Source: Candidatus Nanoarchaeia archaeon (GTDB lineage Archaea > Nanobdellota > Nanobdellia > Woesearchaeales > SM23-78). From it: 37,343 bases of DNA. A program made the position numbers and the translations under genes. Numbering within the stretch: the first letter of the stretch is position 1; the number at the start of each line of letters is the position of its first letter. The stretch covers positions 1-37,343 of the forward strand of contig DATEYH010000138.1 of the NCBI GenBank assembly GCA_035256305.1. Direction: 5' to 3'. This document shows positions 358 through 34,391 of this stretch, piece after piece. Under the pieces are notes generated by a model that did not search any database, was not told the DNA's origin, and worked only from the letters and a program-made list of their open reading frames with translations.

Positions 358-1350
358 TCATCGCCATTTGACAGAAACATCATCTGTTCTTTCATAAGGC
401 CTGATATCTGATTCTTCTACTTTTGCCTTCATGCCTGCCTTGTGCATCTCAATGCCTGTTATTGCTATCATAGCTGCATTGTCTATCAGGAACTGGTTAT
501 CAAGCACAAAGCTTTTGGCTCCTCTTTCCTCGCACATAATCCTGCACATCTCCTGCAAACGCTTGTTGCAAGCAACTCCTCCTCCAAGGAGCAATTCATT
601 CTTGCCTGTATGAGCCATTGCCCTCTCAGCAACCTCAACAAGCATTGCAAACACTGTTTCCTGCACGCTATAGCAAAGGTCTTCTTTTGAGTAATGCTTT
701 GAGCTTATCTTGCTTCGCAGGTTAGTCTCCATGCCTCCAAGGCTTATGTCCATTCCTTTAACGCTATATGGCAGCTTGATGTATTTCTTCCCTTGCTTTG
801 CGTATTCCTCAATCCTTGGGCCTCCTGGAAAGCCTAAGCCAAGCTCTCTTGCAAAGCTGTCAAGAAAATTTCCTGCTCCAAGGTCAAGGGTTTCCCCAAA
901 AACGCGGTACTTGCCTGCCTCGTAAGCAATCACCTGGGTGTTGGCTCCTGAAACATAAAGCAGGACAGGGTCTTTGGCTTTTGTCAAAAAGCGTCCAATC
1001 TCGAGGTGGGCTATGCAATGATTAACTCCTATGAGCGGCTTATTAAGAAGCAAGGCAAGGCTTCGGGCAACTCCTGCGCCTATCCTGAGGGCGTGCCCTA
1101 TGCCTGGGCCTTGGCTGAAAGCAATAAGGTCTATACTCTCTGGTTTTATGCCAGCCTTTTCCAAGGCTTTTTTCAAAGTCTCATCAAGAACCTCAACATG
1201 GTGCTCTGCAAGCTTTGCAGGGATTAATCCTCCGCTCTCTGTCTTGTAGGCATTGATTATGTTAGAAAGCACTTTATTATGAGAAAGCTTTAATTCTACA
1301 ATGCTTATTCCAAAGGTGTGGGCTGTGCTCTCTATTCCTAGGCATATCAT
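358..1350 (-). CDS. kae1: tRNA N6-adenosine threonylcarbamoyltransferase Kae1 (Kae1/TsaD ASKHA family), stand-alone form
   Basis: 330-aa ORF with GIESTAHTFG, NHCIAHLEIG and GGGVACN motifs typical of Kae1/Gcp; no Bud32 fusion. Confidence 0.9.
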   Translation of the reverse strand: MICLGIESTAHTFGISIVELKLSHNKVLSNIINAYKTESGGLIPAKLAEHHVEVLDETLKKALEKAGIKPESIDLIAFSQGPGIGHALRIGAGVARSLALLLNKPLIGVNHCIAHLEIGRFLTKAKDPVLLYVSGANTQVIAYEAGKYRVFGETLDLGAGNFLDSFARELGLGFPGGPRIEEYAKQGKKYIKLPYSVKGMDISLGGMETNLRSKISSKHYSKEDLCYSVQETVFAMLVEVAERAMAHTGKNELLLGGGVACNKRLQEMCRIMCEERGAKSFVLDNQFLIDNAAMIAITGIEMHKAGMKAKVEESDIRPYERTDDVSVKWR

Positions 1351-28022: not shown

Positions 28023-28555
28023 TTAAGAATAAAACAAAAATTCTTTTTTATATTTAATTTTGAAACATAATTTCTTAGAAATAATAAATTAATGATAGCT
28101 GTTCATAGGAATCAACAACCAAGGTTGTTGAGCCAAAAATTCTGAGGAATTTTTGTGCATCATAGTCTTTGCTTCTCAGAGCCAATTCTCTGATTTGATT
28201 GTTAAATGAGAGATTGGACTTATTAGTGGCTGCATGCTGAGCACCTTGTTGCCTTGGTGCGTACACACCAGCTCTATCAACCCGATCTTCTATCGGCGTC
28301 CATGAGCGTCTCTTTTCAAGGATGGCTTCATACTTAGATGCTTTCAGTATTTATCCATGTAAAGCGTAGCTGCCCGGCCTACCCTGTCGGATAACCGGTC
28401 GACCAGAGGCTTCGGGCCCTCGTTCCTCTCGTACTAAAGGTCCCTTCCTTTCAGACACCCAACACTTCCAGTAGATATCAAACAAACTGCCTCGCAGCGT
28501 TCTGAACCCAGCTCACGATCCCTTTTGATAGGTGAACACCCTCACCCTTGGCCGC

Positions 28556-28588
28556 ATACAGTACCTTCTTACTTTCGCAAAAAGGTTA
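28556..28588 (-). other. 33-nt BHB-type mini-intron in 23S domain V (hairpin after GAUGUCGGCU)
   Basis: Outer helix GGCCG/CGGCC, central helix GCAG/CUGU, bulges AAU and AUG, inner helix ACCUU/AAGGU. Removal gives CCGUGCAGAAGCGGCC, the conserved archaeal LSU sequence as I recall it. Confidence 0.6.
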
Positions 28589-28852
28589 TTCTGCACGGCC
28601 AGGATAGGAAGAGCCGACATCTATGTAGCAAACCGCGCCGTCGATAGGAGCTCTCGGGCGCGACAACTCTGTTATCCCCGGAGTAACTTTTCGGTCGGTA
28701 CCGTCCCCCATTCAAGGAGGAACGGCAGTTCGTTAGGCCCAACTTTCGTTTCTGGTATTCTTCTTATTCAAATACCAGTCAGGCTGGCTTTTGCCCTTAC
28801 ACTCAACATCGGATTTCTGACCCGACTGAGCCAACCTTGGGGCGCCACTGAT

Positions 28853-28897
28853 ATAAAGCGAGCATAGACAAGCTTTATCAAGCAATCTATTGCTCAT
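28853..28897 (-). other. 45-nt BHB-type mini-intron in 23S domain V
   Basis: Textbook helix-bulge-helix-bulge-helix: GCCGCUGA/UCAGUGGC, central AAAG/CUUU, two AUA bulges, inner helix UGAGCA-UAGA/UCUAUGCUCG. Removal gives GCUGAAAAGAUAUCAGUGGC. Confidence 0.75.
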
Positions 28898-29233
28898 ATC
28901 TTTTCAGCGGCGTGCCACCCCAGCCAAACTGTCCACCTGCCGGTGTCCAAGTCACAAGGACTTGTGAGCAGCGTAAAACCAGATGAGTAGTGTTACATCG
29001 ACGTCTAAACCTGCACTTGCATGCAAGCCTCAAACAACTCCTACTTACTCTATACACCCGGTCTCACGTTGCAGCAACAGGCTACAGTAAAGTTTCACGG
29101 GGTCTTCGCTTCCCACTGGAAGTCTCTGGTCTTTGCACCAGAACAAAATTTTCAGAGGGTTCCGGTTGGGGACAGTGGAGATCTCGTTACGCCATTCATG
29201 CAGGCCGTCAATCAAACGGCAAGGCATTTCGCT

Positions 29234-30005
29234 CACATCTGTTACTTCCCTTAAAATTTAAGGTACTGACCTTCTCTTTAAGGCGGACAAGCATTTCTAC
29301 TAGTTGCTCAAAAATCTCAAATGATTTTTGGCAACCCCAAAACCACATGGTTTTGATGTCTCCTCACATCGCTATGAGGGTCGGACTATATCTTAACACT
29401 CATCAAAGAGTGTTTTTGGCGTATAGTCTCTGAGGATTCTAGACGCCTTATGACTTTTCGGTTCATCTCAGAAGCAAGTTCAGCTATTTTCTCTAAGCCT
29501 GCTCTTGACAAGTGCTCCTTTTTATTCATAATCCCTAATATTTGTGCAAAGAGTTCAAAGCTATTCTTCTTAGAAGTTTGAAGAGGATTTTCATTTATGA
29601 ACTGAACTATACGGTTCAGGTTGTCTAATCCTCTCACTCGGAACTCTTTCCTATCTCCGTTATTCACAGTTACGCTTCCAAAACCAAAATATGACTTGAT
29701 TCTGTGAAGTACTGCTTCATCGCGTTGATGTTGCACTATCCTTAATTCAGGGAGTACCTGCCATTTTAAGGTCATTTTCTCTAATCTATTAATAGACACA
29801 TGAAAACAACCTTCTCCATCAATGAATCCGACAATCCACTTAGCATCCAGTCTTTCCTGCTGATTATCTGCACCTATCACTTTTTCACCCTGACAACATA
29901 TAAACGTTTTAATTTAAATAGCTCACGTTAATATGTCCAGTGGTAGTGTAGGACTCTCAGACGTCCCAGCATATAGCCAGATTGTTTAAGGCAACTTCTG
30001 TGCTT
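29234..30005 (-). mobile_element. group I intron (772 nt) in 23S domain IV, carrying a LAGLIDADG homing endonuclease ORF
   Basis: Interrupts CUUAAGGU|AGCGAAAUGCC. The 5' exon ends in U, paired as U.G in a 7-bp P1 with internal guide GCCUUAA 13 nt into the intron. The intron ends in G. AAGAUAUAGUCCGACC (the classical S/P7 3' element) follows the ORF, with candidate P7 partner GGACAUAU. Confidence 0.75.
29386..29880 (-). CDS. LAGLIDADG homing endonuclease (single-motif type)
   Basis: KWIVGFIDGEGCFHVSI motif near the N-terminus; 164 aa; GTG start; sits inside the intron and its stop codon lies within the AAGAUAUAGUCC core element. Confidence 0.85.
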   Translation of the reverse strand: MIGADNQQERLDAKWIVGFIDGEGCFHVSINRLEKMTLKWQVLPELRIVQHQRDEAVLHRIKSYFGFGSVTVNNGDRKEFRVRGLDNLNRIVQFINENPLQTSKKNSFELFAQILGIMNKKEHLSRAGLEKIAELASEMNRKVIRRLESSETIRQKHSLMSVKI

Positions 30006-30837
30006 ACCTTAAGAGAGTTATAGTTACTCCCGCCGTTTACCTGTCCTTCGTTCCCTTGGATGGGATTTTCAGATACAGGCACTGGGCAGACGTCACCGAC
30101 TATTCTAGCCCTTACGGGTTGGCAGTCGGTTAAGTTTTTGTTAAACAGTCGGACCTCCTTTGTTACTGTGCCTTACACTCGCATTCTTATGAATACAAGT
30201 GTAGGGACCCCTTAGACCGAAGGCTTGGGGCTAATTTGCCGAATTCCCTCAACCAGATTGTCCCTTCTCGCCGTGGGCTTCTCACCCAGGGGCACCTGTG
30301 CCGGTGCTGGGTATAGACATAAAGGATTTTTCCCTGTTCCCTTTTCAAGGGCTCCGGGTATTAGCTGAACAATACTTAAGTACTGCTGTTCTAAGAGTTG
30401 ACCAGGTTCTCATCGTTACGATACTCCCCTGACCTGCCCTTATTAACAATCCCGACGGGGATTGTCAGCCTAACCAGAAGCGTCAGGAACAAGGCTTGCG
30501 TTACCGCACATACCAATATGGTACAGGAATATTAACCTGTTTCCCTTTCCTCTACTAGCTCAAGTTATGAGCTGAGTTAGGACTAACTTACCCTTGGCTG
30601 ATCTGCATTGCCAAGGAACCCTTGCCCTTTCAGCGACACTGATTCTCACAGTGCTAAGTTCTTACTATTACCAGGATTCTCATTCCTGCAAGATTGACCT
30701 CTCCTCTCGGAGAAGCTTCTGCTCTAGCAGGACGCCTACCTACCGCAACGCTTGCGCGTGCCAGCGGTCTCGGTGACTGATTTAGCCCCGTCCATCTTAG
30801 GCGCTCATAACCTCGAAGAGTAAGCTGTTACGCACTT

Positions 30838-30870
<33 letters not shown>

Positions 30871-32235
30871 CGCTGTCTTTGGTTATGAACAACCTTCACC
30901 CTTTCACACTTAACCAATGCTTAGGGACCTTAACCGCTGTCTGGGTTGTTCCCCTCTCGCGCATCACCCTTACGACGATGCGCCGTCTCCTGAGGTCTAC
31001 AGTGCATGGGACTTTGGAGTTGGACAAAGAACCGACCACTTTCGCGGCCTAAATCCTAAATCCGTAGCTCTACCTCCCAGGCAACCTCGCTCAGGGCTTG
31101 ACTGCAGCCAACTTCGGTAGGAACCAGCTATCGCCGAACTCGATTGGCTTTTTACCCCTACGCTCAAGTTAGAAGAACATTTGTACATAGAACCTCTGCA
31201 GGCCTCCACCCTTCTTTAGAAGGGCTTCACCTTACCCAAGTGTAGTTCGTCCGGCTTCGGGTCTGGTCCGAGTGACTAAAGGCGCTTTCACACCTCTCCC
31301 CTCGCATGCTGCGGGATATTGCTTTCGCTTTGGATGCCCATTGATTAATGGTTATCCTTGCCACTCAGACAAACTCCCTGGCTCGTTATTCTAAACGCAC
31401 GATACACAGCCGAAGCTGCGTATCCCGCTGTATCTACTAGGTTTCAAGTTCTATTTGACTCTCTGTCAAGAGTTCTTTTCAGCTTTCCCTCACGGTACTG
31501 GTTCGCTATCGGACTCAAAACGTGTTTAGGGTTAGGAGTTGATGCCTCCTAGCTTCGCACCTAGTATCCAGTAGGTGCTACTCAAGATACTGCCACGCCT
31601 CCCTGACTCCCTCTACGGGACTATCACCCTCTATGGTACTTCTTTCCAGAAGACTTTGAGTCATCAGGGTAAGGTCTAAAAGACAGTCTTACAAATCCAC
31701 ATCCCATCTCATTTTTCAATGAAAGGTTCAGATTGCCCTTTGCTGCTTTCGCTCTCTGCTAATAACAGCATCCTTAGTTTAGTTTCTCTTCCTGCAGGTA
31801 CTAAGACGTTTCAGTTCCCTGCGTATAGCTAGCCTTTCGGCTTCAAAGCGAAGTCGCATTCAGAAATCCCTGGTTCAACCCCTGCGTGCGGGTCGCCAAG
31901 GCTTTTCGTGGCTTGCCACGTCCTTCTTCGCCGTCTTGAGCCAAGCTATCCTCCTAGTAGAGTATTTTCTCTCAGAACTTAGCAATCATTTCAGAGACTT
32001 ATCTCTGTGTTGCAAAGACCAATAATTTCCTATGAACAGCCTTCATTAAACATGAGTAAATGAATATTGGTCGACATGAAAAAGCATGTCTTCTCGTGTT
32101 CTGAGCTTCTTCACCCAGCAAGTCTTAGTTGCCGAGCTGCTAATAAAAAATTGAATATGAAATGTAAGTGGACTCTGCGACAACAAAAATCGCGAAGCGA
32201 TTTTTGAGTCCTCGAGTCCATCTCACTTCGTTCGA

Positions 32236-32377
32236 TGGACTCTGCGGGAATTGCGTCCTCAGAGTTTATGTAATAAACTCTGATGTTGTATTCGCACCCG
32301 CGGCCCCCACCTCTCTCAAGCAAAAGCTCTTGCCTTTTGCATGCAAGGGTGGTGCTCTACTACTGAGCTAAGAGCCC
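32236..32377 (-). tRNA. tRNA-Ala(UGC) in the 16S-23S spacer, with two introns (29 nt at 37/38, 32313-32341; 41 nt in the T-loop at 59/60, 32250-32290)
   Basis: Acceptor GGGCUCU/AGAGUCC with the G3:U70 Ala identity pair, D arm GCUC/GAGC, anticodon stem CCACC/GGUGG, loop CUUGCA-A, variable GGGCC, T stem GCGGG/CCCGC. T-loop intron flanked by central helix UGCG/CGCA and bulges AAU/AUU. The mature T-loop UGCGAAU and D-loop AGUAGUA are atypical. Confidence 0.75.
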
Positions 32378-33224
32378 ATGCCGGGGGTATAATCCCCTTT
32401 TGCTCCTGTGAATAGCAAAAAAATAATGTGGTAGGAGAAGAACTAGCCTAACAAGATTCTAATATTTATATAAAAAATTATAGGAGGTGATCCCACCGCA
32501 GGTTCCCCTACGGTGACCTTGTGACGACTTAACCCATCTCACTGAACTCAGGTTCAACACAACCAAGAAAGCTGTGTTTCACCTAAACCCTGCTCGATTG
32601 GTTTGACGGGCGGTGTGTGCAAGAGACAGGGACATATTCACCGGACTATGCTAAAATCCGATTACTAGGGATTCCATCGTCACGAGGCTGAGTTACAAGC
32701 CTCGATCTGAACTAAGATATGGTTTAGAGGTTTAGCTCCCCCTTTCGGGGTGGCATCCCATTGTCCATACCATTGTTGCGCGCGTGTAGCCTAGAGCATT
32801 CGGAGCATACAGACCTACCGTAGCCTGCACCTTCCTCCCTGTTTCCAGGGCAGTCCCCTCAAAGTGCTCAATCCATCCGTGGATGTTGTTAGCAATAGAG
32901 GGTACAGGTCTCGCTCGTTGCCAGACTTAACTGGACGCTTCACAGCACGAGCTGGCGACGGCCATGCACTACCTCTCGGCTTGTCAGGTAATGTCTTCAG
33001 CATGACCTTCATTCTGCCGTCGGCTCTAGTGAGGTTCTCTGCGTTGAGTTAGATTGAACCGCACGCCGCACCCCTTGTGGTGTCTCCCCGCCAATTCCTT
33101 AAAGTTTCAGCCTTGCGACCGTACTTCCCTGGTGGCGAGCTTAACGACTTCTCTTCGACACTGCGCATCCTCGTGGGGTGCGCAATACCTTGCTCGCAGC
33201 GTTTACAGCTAGGACTACTCGGGT

Positions 33225-33368
33225 AATTAGCACCTTTATTTCCATAACGTATCAGAATTTGCAATGGATTGTAGTAATTTTTTCTTGGCAAAAACAAATC
33301 GTTCAGTGGGTTTTAACGAAGTTAAAATCCCACATTGCATTTTTTGGTACAGCTTTGATTAAAGGTGT
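33225..33368 (-). other. 144-nt BHB-type intron in 16S, inside the GGAUUAGAUACCC block
   Basis: Central helix UUAG/CUAA, bulges AUA and UUA, 8-bp inner helix CACCUUUA/UAAAGGUG. Cutting after the 2nd bulge nt restores GGAUUAGAU|ACCCGAGUAGUCC. Contains a 12-bp UUCG-capped hairpin. Confidence 0.8.
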
Positions 33369-33852
33369 ATCTAATCCGTTTTGCTCCCCTAGCTTTCGTT
33401 CCTCACAGTCGGACCCGTCCTGGCCAGATGCCTTCGCCATTGGTAGTCCTCCCTGGATTAACCCATTTTACCGGTACCCAAGGAATACTTCTGACCTCTT
33501 CCGGTCCCGAGTCTTGTAGTGTCCTCTGCACGCCGACAGGTTAAGCCTGCCGATTTCACAAAGGATTTTCAAGACCTGCTACGAACGCTTTAGACCCAAT
33601 AATCGTGATGACCACTTGGGGCGCTGGGGTTACCGCGGCGGCTGGCACCAGTCTTGCCCACCCCTTATTCGCCAAGCTTTTTACACATGGCAAAAGCCTA
33701 TCAATGATAAGCACTTGGGATCCCCTTCTCACACTTGCGTGCATTGGAAAGGTTTCGCGCCTGCTGCACCCCGTGGGGCTGGGACCAGTATCTCAGTGTC
33801 CCTCTCCGGGCTCCCACTCTCATGGCCCGTACGGATCCTAGGTTTGGTGGTC

Positions 33853-33896
33853 TTGTAAGCGCCAGCTTACAACCCAAAAGGGTTAGCTTTTGCGTG
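33853..33896 (-). other. 44-nt BHB-type mini-intron in 16S (helix equivalent to E. coli ~255-270)
   Basis: Outer helix UUGGCGGU/ACCACCAA, central helix GUAA/UUAC, bulges UGC and AAG. Removal gives UUGGCGGUGUAAUGGACCACCAA, colinear with the conserved UUGGUGGGGUAACGGCCCACCAA. Confidence 0.65.
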
Positions 33897-34391
33897 CATT
33901 ACACCGCCAACAGCCTAATCCGCCGCCAGTCCATCCTATGGCACGAGTTTAAGGAAGAGCCCATTCCAGGGCTTGTTCCCTATCAGGTATTACCCTCACT
34001 TTCGCGAAGCTATCCCCGACCATAGGGCAGGTTACCGACGTGTTACTGAGCCTTTCGCCTCCATTGCTGGATGACTTGCATGGCTTAATCGGATCCCAAT
34101 AGCAGCAATCTCCCGCAGGATCAACGGGAACTGATTATTTGATTATTCGGCTAAAACTTTAATGAAACTTTATTAGAATTCTGCTAAACAGGATTCTTTC
34201 TCCTACCAGTATACTTGAATAGCTAGTTCAAGCATGAAACAAACTTTTCGAGTTATGCTGATGCAAAAGATGCTTAATCCAGACTTTCGTCGAGATGTTT
34301 TTAATTCTGCATAACTATGGCGCTGATCGCTTGTAGAGAATCAGTGTTTAGATCCTCGCCTGAAAATGCGTGTTTTCAGAGAGTTATAGGG

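Follow-up and report, generated by a model that had tools for sequence, protein, structure and literature searches.

How is an insertion of 772 nucleotides (nt) that contains an open reading frame (ORF) for a LAGLIDADG protein removed from the 23S rRNA of an archaeon, when the same rRNA operon also contains introns of the bulge-helix-bulge (BHB) type? This question is raised by positions 29234..30005 of a contig of 37,343 nt from Candidatus Nanoarchaeia archaeon (GenBank assembly GCA_035256305.1, contig DATEYH010000138.1), and we refer to this whole stretch of DNA as the window. According to an earlier note on the window, the insertion is a group I intron that carries a LAGLIDADG gene, and the archaeal 23S gene in which it lies also has BHB introns. 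Covariation, matches to covariance models, the lack of a BHB at the junctions and four BHB introns that served as controls uphold this description, and we are highly confident that the insertion is a group I intron with a homing-endonuclease gene (HEG), of the L1931 family and probably of subgroup IB4 in the GISSD/Nawrocki scheme.

The host is an archaeal large subunit (LSU) 23S rRNA gene at 28202..31977 (Rfam LSU_rRNA_archaea, 2393.8 bits, model positions 1-2987), and the 16S rRNA gene of the same operon is at 32482..34131. These genes and all of the features located below are on the minus strand, and intron position n corresponds to window position 30006-n. The archaeal LSU covariance model aligns across a single gap of 773 positions, which corresponds to 29234..30005 and is flanked by ...GGGAGUAACUAUAACUCUCUUA and AGCGAAAUGCCUUGCCG. 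Read on the minus strand, the only possible mature 23S junction connects ...CUUAAGGU with AGCGAAAU, or is the same junction shifted by a shared A; therefore, the insertion is 29234..30005, 772 nt. The 5′ exon ends in ...CUCUUAAGGU, and the intron junctions read U/AAGCAC...GAUGUG/AGCG. By the numbering of helix 69, the insertion point is U1931/A1932 of the Escherichia coli 23S rRNA, so that the intron follows the equivalent of U1931. The mature junction, ...UUAAGGU followed by AGCGAAAU, is that of the L1931 site, and the bacterial homologous introns are located between GGUCCUAAGGU and AGCGAAAUUCC, a site also given as between GGUCCUAAGGU and AGCGAAAUUCCUUGUCGGG. The site named in the earlier note, between AAGGU and AGCGAAA near E. 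coli 1925-1931, is thus L1931. This numbering is consistent with the LSU/1931 assignments of Nawrocki, Jones & Eddy (2018; NAR 46:7970; PMC6125680).

The classical archaeal rRNA introns are LAGLIDADG-bearing BHB introns (PMC6125680), and the host clearly uses the BHB pathway, as four BHB inserts are found in the operon. The insertion could thus be a BHB intron with a homing-endonuclease gene (of the I-DmoI or I-PorI type) that is excised by the tRNA splicing endonuclease, with group I motifs that are coincidental or vestigial. The junctions were scored for a central helix of 4 bp, followed on each strand by a bulge of 3 nt that is cut after its second base, together with flanking helices. At both of the registers that are compatible with the mature rRNA, no BHB was found at 29234..30005: two of the four central pairs are formed, the outer run is 0-1 and the inner run is 0. 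The same script applied to the four other insertions of the operon, which were revealed by the rRNA covariance-model alignments, gave four of four central pairs with 3-nt bulges in every case. The alternative is opposed, moreover, by a full group I core that has been kept by compensatory changes and by the homology of the intron to introns of bacteria, which do not have the BHB splicing endonuclease. We consider it very improbable that this is a BHB intron.

The group I core begins at the 5′ exon. The exon strand of P1, UUAAGGU at exon positions -7 to -1 (30006..30012), pairs with G14-A20 (GCCUUAA), and this helix of seven pairs, which had been recognized in the earlier note, is lengthened by two pairs between A1A2 and U12U13. 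The 3′ strand of P1 is the internal guide sequence, intron 12-20 (UUGCCUUAA; 29986..29994). U-1 is located in the U.G pair at the 5′ splice site, a pair that is present in 30 of 30 homologues, and exon position -7 covaries with the last base of the guide, with C-G in bacteria and U-A or U.G in archaea. A P10 of 3 bp between G11-U13 (G11U12U13) and the AGC of the 3′ exon is possible. P2 is absent from the fold of the window intron. The 5′ strand of P3, UCUGGC (intron 25-30; 29976..29981), pairs with 586-591, and the 5′ strand of P4, UGCUGG (intron 35-40; 29966..29971), is contained in the P element AUAUGCUGGGA (intron 32-42) and pairs with UCAGCA at 143-148. The P5 domain (29867..29961) is composed of P5 (45-48/136-139), P5a (54-60/126-133, with A129 bulged) and the P5b hairpin (61-120), and all three were recovered by an unconstrained minimum free energy (MFE) fold of intron 41-142 (z -3.5). 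The Q element (29847..29863) includes the 3′ strand of P4 (143-148) and the 5′ strands of P6 (149-150) and P6a (156-159), and it falls within the first 12 codons of the ORF. The 3′ strands of P6a (564-567) and P6 (571-572), at 29434..29442, close the loop that contains the body of the ORF.

Downstream of this loop, the R element (29415..29430) contains the 5′ strand of P7, G576(A577 bulged)GACUA582, followed by the 3′ strand of P3 (586-591); it is covered by the Rfam Intron_gpI alignment, and compensatory changes in R and S occur in the homologues L004, L006 and L008. P7 is formed by six pairs between G576(A577)GACUA582 and U618AGUCC623, with the bulge of a guanosine-binding P7, and its sequence, GAGACUA/UAGUCC, is equal letter for letter to the published P7 of the archaeal IB4 introns at LSU/1931, in which the second base is bulged. 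The earlier note had instead proposed GGACAUAU (intron 68-75) as the 5′ strand of P7; this sequence belongs to the P5b hairpin in the MFE fold, and the real P7 is 576-582/618-623, where R and S covary. Two extra P7 pairs (583-584/616-617) were tried and rejected, as they showed no covariation and up to seven mismatches at one pair, and the published P7 of six pairs was kept. The P8 hairpin, ACACUC UUUGAU GAGUGU (intron 593-610; 29396..29413), was obtained from the MFE fold, and a hairpin of differing sequence occupies this place in every homologue. The S element, identified previously, is AAGAUAUAGUCCGACC at intron 612-627 (29379..29394) and consists of J8/7 and the 3′ strand of P7, U618-C623; as had also been reported, it includes the stop codon of the ORF (UAG, 618-620, in the P7 3′ strand). 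P9 is a hairpin (627-633/638-644; 29362..29379) with a GCGA (GNRA) L9 tetraloop, and it is followed at 29235..29361 by a peripheral extension with three further hairpins to approximately position 760 and by the 3′ tail GUAACAGAUGU, in which AGUAACA is conserved in the homologue alignment. The MFE of the P9 domain (623-772) is -47.6 kcal/mol (z -4.1). The intron ends, as previously stated, in a guanosine (omega G, G772, at 29234) at the 3′ splice site, and a terminal G is present in 27 of 31 aligned homologous introns.

To test the fold for compensatory changes, we aligned the cores of 30 distinct homologous introns (8 with archaeal hosts and 22 with bacterial hosts). The splice sites and the P, Q, R and S elements served as anchors for the segments, which were aligned with MAFFT, otherwise without any fitting to the structure. 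For 52 pairs in the 30 introns, standard pairing is present in 96.0% of 1559 cells, compared with 31-43% when the 3′ partners are slid by 1-3 columns, and 28 of the 52 pairs have changed on both sides. None of 500 column shuffles matched the observed value on any of five measures. Compensatory changes are particularly frequent in P3 (five of six pairs), P5a (six of seven), P6a (four of four) and P9 (six of seven, with a GCGA loop that is unchanged in 30 sequences), and they also occur in P5; P4, which does not vary in any homologue, and P6 are invariant and hence uninformative either way. For P8 and the P9 extension, the support consists of hairpins in the individual sequences and of MFE z-scores rather than of a column-by-column alignment. 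The order of P, Q, R and S is the canonical one, and a P3-P8 core with the P3/P7 pseudoknot was located in full. The assignment to subgroup IB4 is drawn from comparison with the published archaeal IB4 set: the intron probably belongs there, having the same site, the same P7 and, as in that set, no P2.

A covariance model of the 5′ half (model R1), which was built from 21 relatives with the window left out, has a sole match in the 37 kb, at 29844..30014 on the minus strand (121.1 bits, E 8e-27); this match begins at the exon strand of P1, and its alignment contains no non-standard pair, including in the P5 domain. The earlier note had called for a scan with Rfam Intron_gpI. In a 1-kb scan, this model gives the window intron 31.3 bits (E 6.4e-6), which is below the gathering score of 50. 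The 3′ core is fitted well, with UCAGAGACUAUACGCC ... AAGAUAUAGUCCGACC and the P9 hairpin. The Rfam alignment of the 5′ half, in which P3-P6 were forced into the ORF with many mismatches, was rejected in favor of the placement derived from L011, an ORF-less homologue that itself scores 65.7 bits with Intron_gpI, above the gathering score.

The ORF (29386..29880) encodes 164 aa from a GUG at intron 126 to the UAG at 618-620 and contains a single motif, IVGFIDGEG, which has the acidic residue. Residues 16-114 match Pfam LAGLIDADG_1 (PF00961; E 1.6e-25, 90.4 bits against a cut-off of 23.1), and more than 2200 homologues of the protein were found at E <= 1e-10. The best matches in the PDB are two-domain enzymes of the I-OnuI family (best E 6e-43), to each half of which the protein aligns, and a single-domain chain of 170 aa, 5gkk, aligns with it end to end (E 1e-36); a literature search on PDB 5gkk found no paper. 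A comparison with enzymes of the I-CreI type had been suggested, and a match of the I-CvuI/I-CreI type does exist (E 2e-8), but it is far weaker than that to the I-OnuI family, as is the match to the enzyme of an archaeal BHB intron, I-Vdi141I (3e54; E 2.2e-10). The product is a single-motif LAGLIDADG_1 endonuclease and, by analogy with relatives such as I-ShaI, probably acts as a homodimer.

The ORF and the ribozyme share sequence at both ends. The start of the ORF overlaps approximately 35 nt of the core, and its first 12 codons form P5a, P5, J5/4, P4′, P6 and P6a; the end overlaps approximately 57 nt, where the last 19 codons and the stop coincide with P6a′, P6′, P7, P3′ and P8, and the UAG is in the 3′ strand of P7. 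The position of the ORF body can be determined from the homologues. The sequence GGUGCAGAYAAUCAGCAGGAAAG, which includes the Q element, is matched exactly by at least 120 metagenome loci. Among the matches listed, Q is preceded by P in nearly all loci and followed in most by R and then S. Again among the matches listed, Q and R are 43-60 nt apart in the shortest introns, which lack an ORF, and mostly approximately 440-500 nt apart in ORF-bearing introns. This difference places the body of the ORF in the loop closed by P6/P6a and not in P8, where the earlier note had put it.

The beginning of the ORF merits separate consideration. A Shine-Dalgarno-like GGUGA (intron 117-121; 29885..29889) lies 4 nt upstream of the GUG, in the 3′ strand at the base of P5b opposite UACC (61-64), a pairing seen in the MFE fold, and the conserved GGUGA likewise precedes the start codon in L004-L007. 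Given its position in frame 4 nt downstream of the conserved GGUGA, and adjacent to the codon used by the relatives, the GUG is likely the start codon. In the window copy, the G-to-A change in the relatives' start codon is compensated in P5a (C56 to U), and among the homologues, the start codon in P5a covaries with its pairing partner (C-G with GUG, U-A with AUG). A C-G to U-A change in the P5a of the window copy would have removed the usual AUG and shifted the start one codon upstream. In the folded intron, GGUGA and the start codon both lie within helices, and this predicted pairing suggests that folding limits translation of the endonuclease. A further-reaching proposal, that ribozyme folding and endonuclease translation form a conserved, mutually exclusive switch in the archaeal and bacterial L1931 members, with translation from unfolded RNA only, is offered as a tentative and rather doubtful idea.

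Several considerations weigh against our interpretation and should be set out together. The scan of the whole window with Rfam at the gathering threshold gave no Intron_gpI match, a result that we attribute to the ORF splitting the core. P3 of the window copy has a C26.A590 mismatch where the relatives have C-G, and the AUG with which the relatives start is AUA in the window copy, leaving translation to start at the adjacent GUG. Self-splicing, its dependence on guanosine or GTP, dimerization of the protein, and endonuclease and homing activity are all properties that we infer. Some rDNA group I introns do not self-splice in vitro. Together with this background, the P3 mismatch and the loss of the ancestral AUG would fit a decaying intron, which needs a protein helper (its own LAGLIDADG protein acting as a maturase or a host factor) or is kept in a non-functional rRNA copy. 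However, every other core pair of the window intron is standard, and the copy retains an intact GNRA L9 loop, bulged P7 and terminal G. The reading frame is uninterrupted, its motif is intact and its GUG start is preceded by the conserved GGUGA; the surrounding 23S gene scores 2393.8 bits over its full length, and identical copies are present in three assemblies. We therefore regard decay as unlikely, although it retains somewhat more of our credence than a BHB intron does.

The insertion site, the fold with its covariation, the homology to introns that exceed the Rfam threshold, the lack of a BHB and the protein family are directly supported, and from these a path of splicing and homing can be proposed for a group I intron in the 23S pre-rRNA of this uncultured DPANN-like archaeon. 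The intron would fold into a ribozyme with P1 and P3-P9, with the exon end UUAAGGU base-paired to the guide GCCUUAA. P7 would bind an exogenous guanosine, which would attack after the U of the U.G pair, and the freed 3′-OH of the exon would attack after the terminal G, joining ...AAGGU to AGCGAAA... and releasing the intron. The ligated exons would read ...CUUAAGGUAGCGAAAU. The endonuclease encoded in the P6a loop would cut intron-less 23S rDNA at the same site, between ACUCUCUUAAGGU and AGCGAAAUGCCUUGCC, and repair would copy the intron into it.

Homologous introns show how the element is likely to have spread and bear on whether it belongs to this genome at all. Related loci in species-representative genomes occur in Micrarchaeota and in metagenome-assembled genomes (MAGs) of Methanosarcinales, with 63-70% protein identity, and in bacteria of the candidate phyla radiation (CPR) and other bacteria, with 30-42%. 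The endonuclease is 58-70% identical to those of the other archaeal-host L1931 copies and 40-46% identical to those of the bacterial-host copies aligned. Opposite the exon U of archaea, the last base of the guide is A or G, and opposite the C of bacteria it is G. The intron and exon sequence is identical in three independent assemblies, one of which is a groundwater-style metagenome scaffold. The protein identities, the adaptation of the guide and the three assemblies argue for a spread mainly within archaea. CPR bacteria from the same kinds of sample have related introns at the same site, and one might thus suspect an assembly artefact in which an intron-bearing 23S fragment of a CPR bacterium was chimerically joined to the archaeal contig. 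However, both exons are archaeal and continuous with the archaeal 23S and 16S genes, the guide fits the archaeal exon (A20 opposite U-7), and the closer identity of the protein to the archaeal-host copies and the agreement of the three assemblies point in the same direction. The probability of a chimera is, in our judgment, close to nil, and we treat the element as a genuine intron of the archaeal gene. As to the identity of the host, the best named relative of the Kae1 gene in the window is from 'Euryarchaeota archaeon SM23-78' (84% identity), and similar proteins are labelled Nanoarchaeota archaeon; the host is probably an archaeon of the DPANN type.

The ORF-less homologue L011 is an intron of 435 nt at the same site (793..1227) in a MAG of the gammaproteobacterial Arenicellales. 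The two introns have the 5′ region and the 3′ core in common, as well as a stretch of 29 nt (GAUAGGUGCAGAUAAUCAGCAGGAAAGAC); this stretch is the classical Q element (the P4 3′ strand and the start of P6) and is identical in the two, and L011 also retains the AUG and the first approximately 11 codons of the endonuclease. L011 thus has the look of a copy from which the ORF was deleted, and it is unusually close to the window copy. Four other ORF-less L1931 introns (L023, L026, L042 and L046) lie in exons of the archaeal type (CUUAAGGU) and have a P2-like hairpin of approximately 40 nt between P1 and P3, an element that the window intron does not have. The same Q/R/S core was also seen at neighbouring 23S sites in two metagenome loci, in an intron that follows AACGGU(C), of the L1923 type (L095), and in one that follows AACUAUA, of the L1917 type (L112). 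In several CPR loci (L009, L012-L014), two R or S elements fall inside a stretch of 300 nt, an arrangement suggestive of tandem or nested introns.

The four remaining insertions bring the total for the operon to five introns, one of group I and four of the BHB type (two in 23S and two in 16S). The 23S insert at 28853..28897 (45 nt) is a textbook BHB, with the central helix AAAG/CUUU (4/4), bulges AUA and AUA, an outer helix of 8 bp and an inner helix of 6 bp, and its splicing restores GCUGAAAAGAU joined to AUCAGUGGC. The second 23S insert, at 28556..28588 (33 nt), has the central helix GCAG/CUGU (4/4) with interrupted flanking helices and looks like a relaxed BHB mini-intron. We presume that these two inserts are located approximately in the loops of helix 81 and helix 91, respectively. 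In 16S, a BHB intron of 144 nt at 33225..33368 lies between GGAUUAGAU and ACCCGAG, with the central helix UUAG/CUAA (4/4), bulges AUA and UUA and an inner helix of 8 bp (CACCUUUA/UAAAGGUG), and it is too short for an endonuclease gene. A BHB-type insert of 44 nt at 33853..33896, in a hairpin loop of the 5′ domain, has the central helix GUAA/UUAC (4/4), bulges UGC and AAG and an outer helix of 3 bp. The approximate locations of the 16S inserts are presumably near E. coli 793 for the former and the 5′ domain for the latter. The claim that BHB introns occur in the same 23S gene is therefore correct, and within a single operon the host employs both ways of splicing. No tRNA gene was detected by ARAGORN, either in the 16S-23S spacer (31978..32481) or in the rest of the 37 kb, and Rfam found no 5S rRNA beside the 23S gene; the operon therefore consists of 16S and 23S only.

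Nawrocki, Jones & Eddy applied subtype models to all archaeal GenBank sequences and listed 39 group I introns, so that the statement that group I introns are uncommon in archaea is out of date. Fifteen of the 39 are IB4 introns at LSU/1931, in Woesearchaeota, Pacearchaeota, Micrarchaeota, Thaumarchaeota, Nanohaloarchaeota and Euryarchaeota; seven of these 15 have LAGLIDADG_1 genes, and the co-occurrence of group I and BHB introns in one host gene is stated explicitly (PMC6125680). The coexistence that the earlier note had called notable is therefore real, but it was reported in 2018. The window intron resembles the published archaeal introns (e.g., IB4.12, IB4.15, IB4.23, IB4.25 and IB4.27) in the domain of the host, the gene, the site, an identical P7 and the HEG family, and also in being found in metagenome contigs of the DPANN type; its size is 772 nt, compared with 681-743 nt in those examples. 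None of the 39 introns has this length at this site, and by its listed length the window copy is therefore an additional member of the set. Unlike the published set, the window operon has five introns, one of group I and four BHB. The kind of element and its coexistence with BHB introns have already been described, and the window intron is a new example and not a new discovery.

The bacterial L1931 introns described in 2007 (PMC1995217) occupy the same site, lack P2 and have a complex P5 domain, and in them, too, the ORF reaches from a peripheral loop into the core; their HEGs are single-motif genes of 143-167 aa, and the overlap of ORF and core had already been described for the bacterial L1917/L1931 introns (PMC1995217). 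The Thermotoga introns are cited as actively self-splicing, as far as the title of a reference indicates. Unlike the bacterial introns, the window intron has an archaeal host and a guide that ends in A and not G, matching the archaeal exon U at -7, and it is 70-120 nt longer, mostly because of P5b and the P9 extension. I-ShaI, from the CPR 23S insertion cluster 23IS7, cuts the intron-less site and is a homodimer (Tsurumaki et al., 2024; PMC11270868). By its description, I-ShaI is similar to the window protein in having a single LAGLIDADG_1 domain of approximately 19 kDa, encoded in the middle of a group I-like insertion of approximately 690 nt within L1917-L1952 of 23S, although its host is bacterial. 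The archaeal BHB rRNA introns with LAGLIDADG genes (I-Vdi141I, PDB 3e54) likewise have an archaeal rRNA host and a protein of similar size, but the window intron has a ribozyme core and no BHB at its junctions, and the mechanism of splicing differs.

The window intron leaves existing knowledge unchanged. It does show that ORF-interrupted introns of the L1931 family escape the general Rfam model when its gathering threshold is applied; routine annotation would leave such introns unlabelled, and in this case the intron came to light only when a short stretch (29100..30150) was scanned by E-value. The window also adds a well-resolved example of an archaeal group I intron, whose secondary structure is complete and backed by covariation. 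Moreover, one small rRNA operon requires two unrelated splicing routes, with one ribozyme and four BHB introns, and it is thus a convenient natural substrate for testing the descent of BHB introns from group I introns (Tocchini-Valentini et al., 2011, as cited in PMC6125680).

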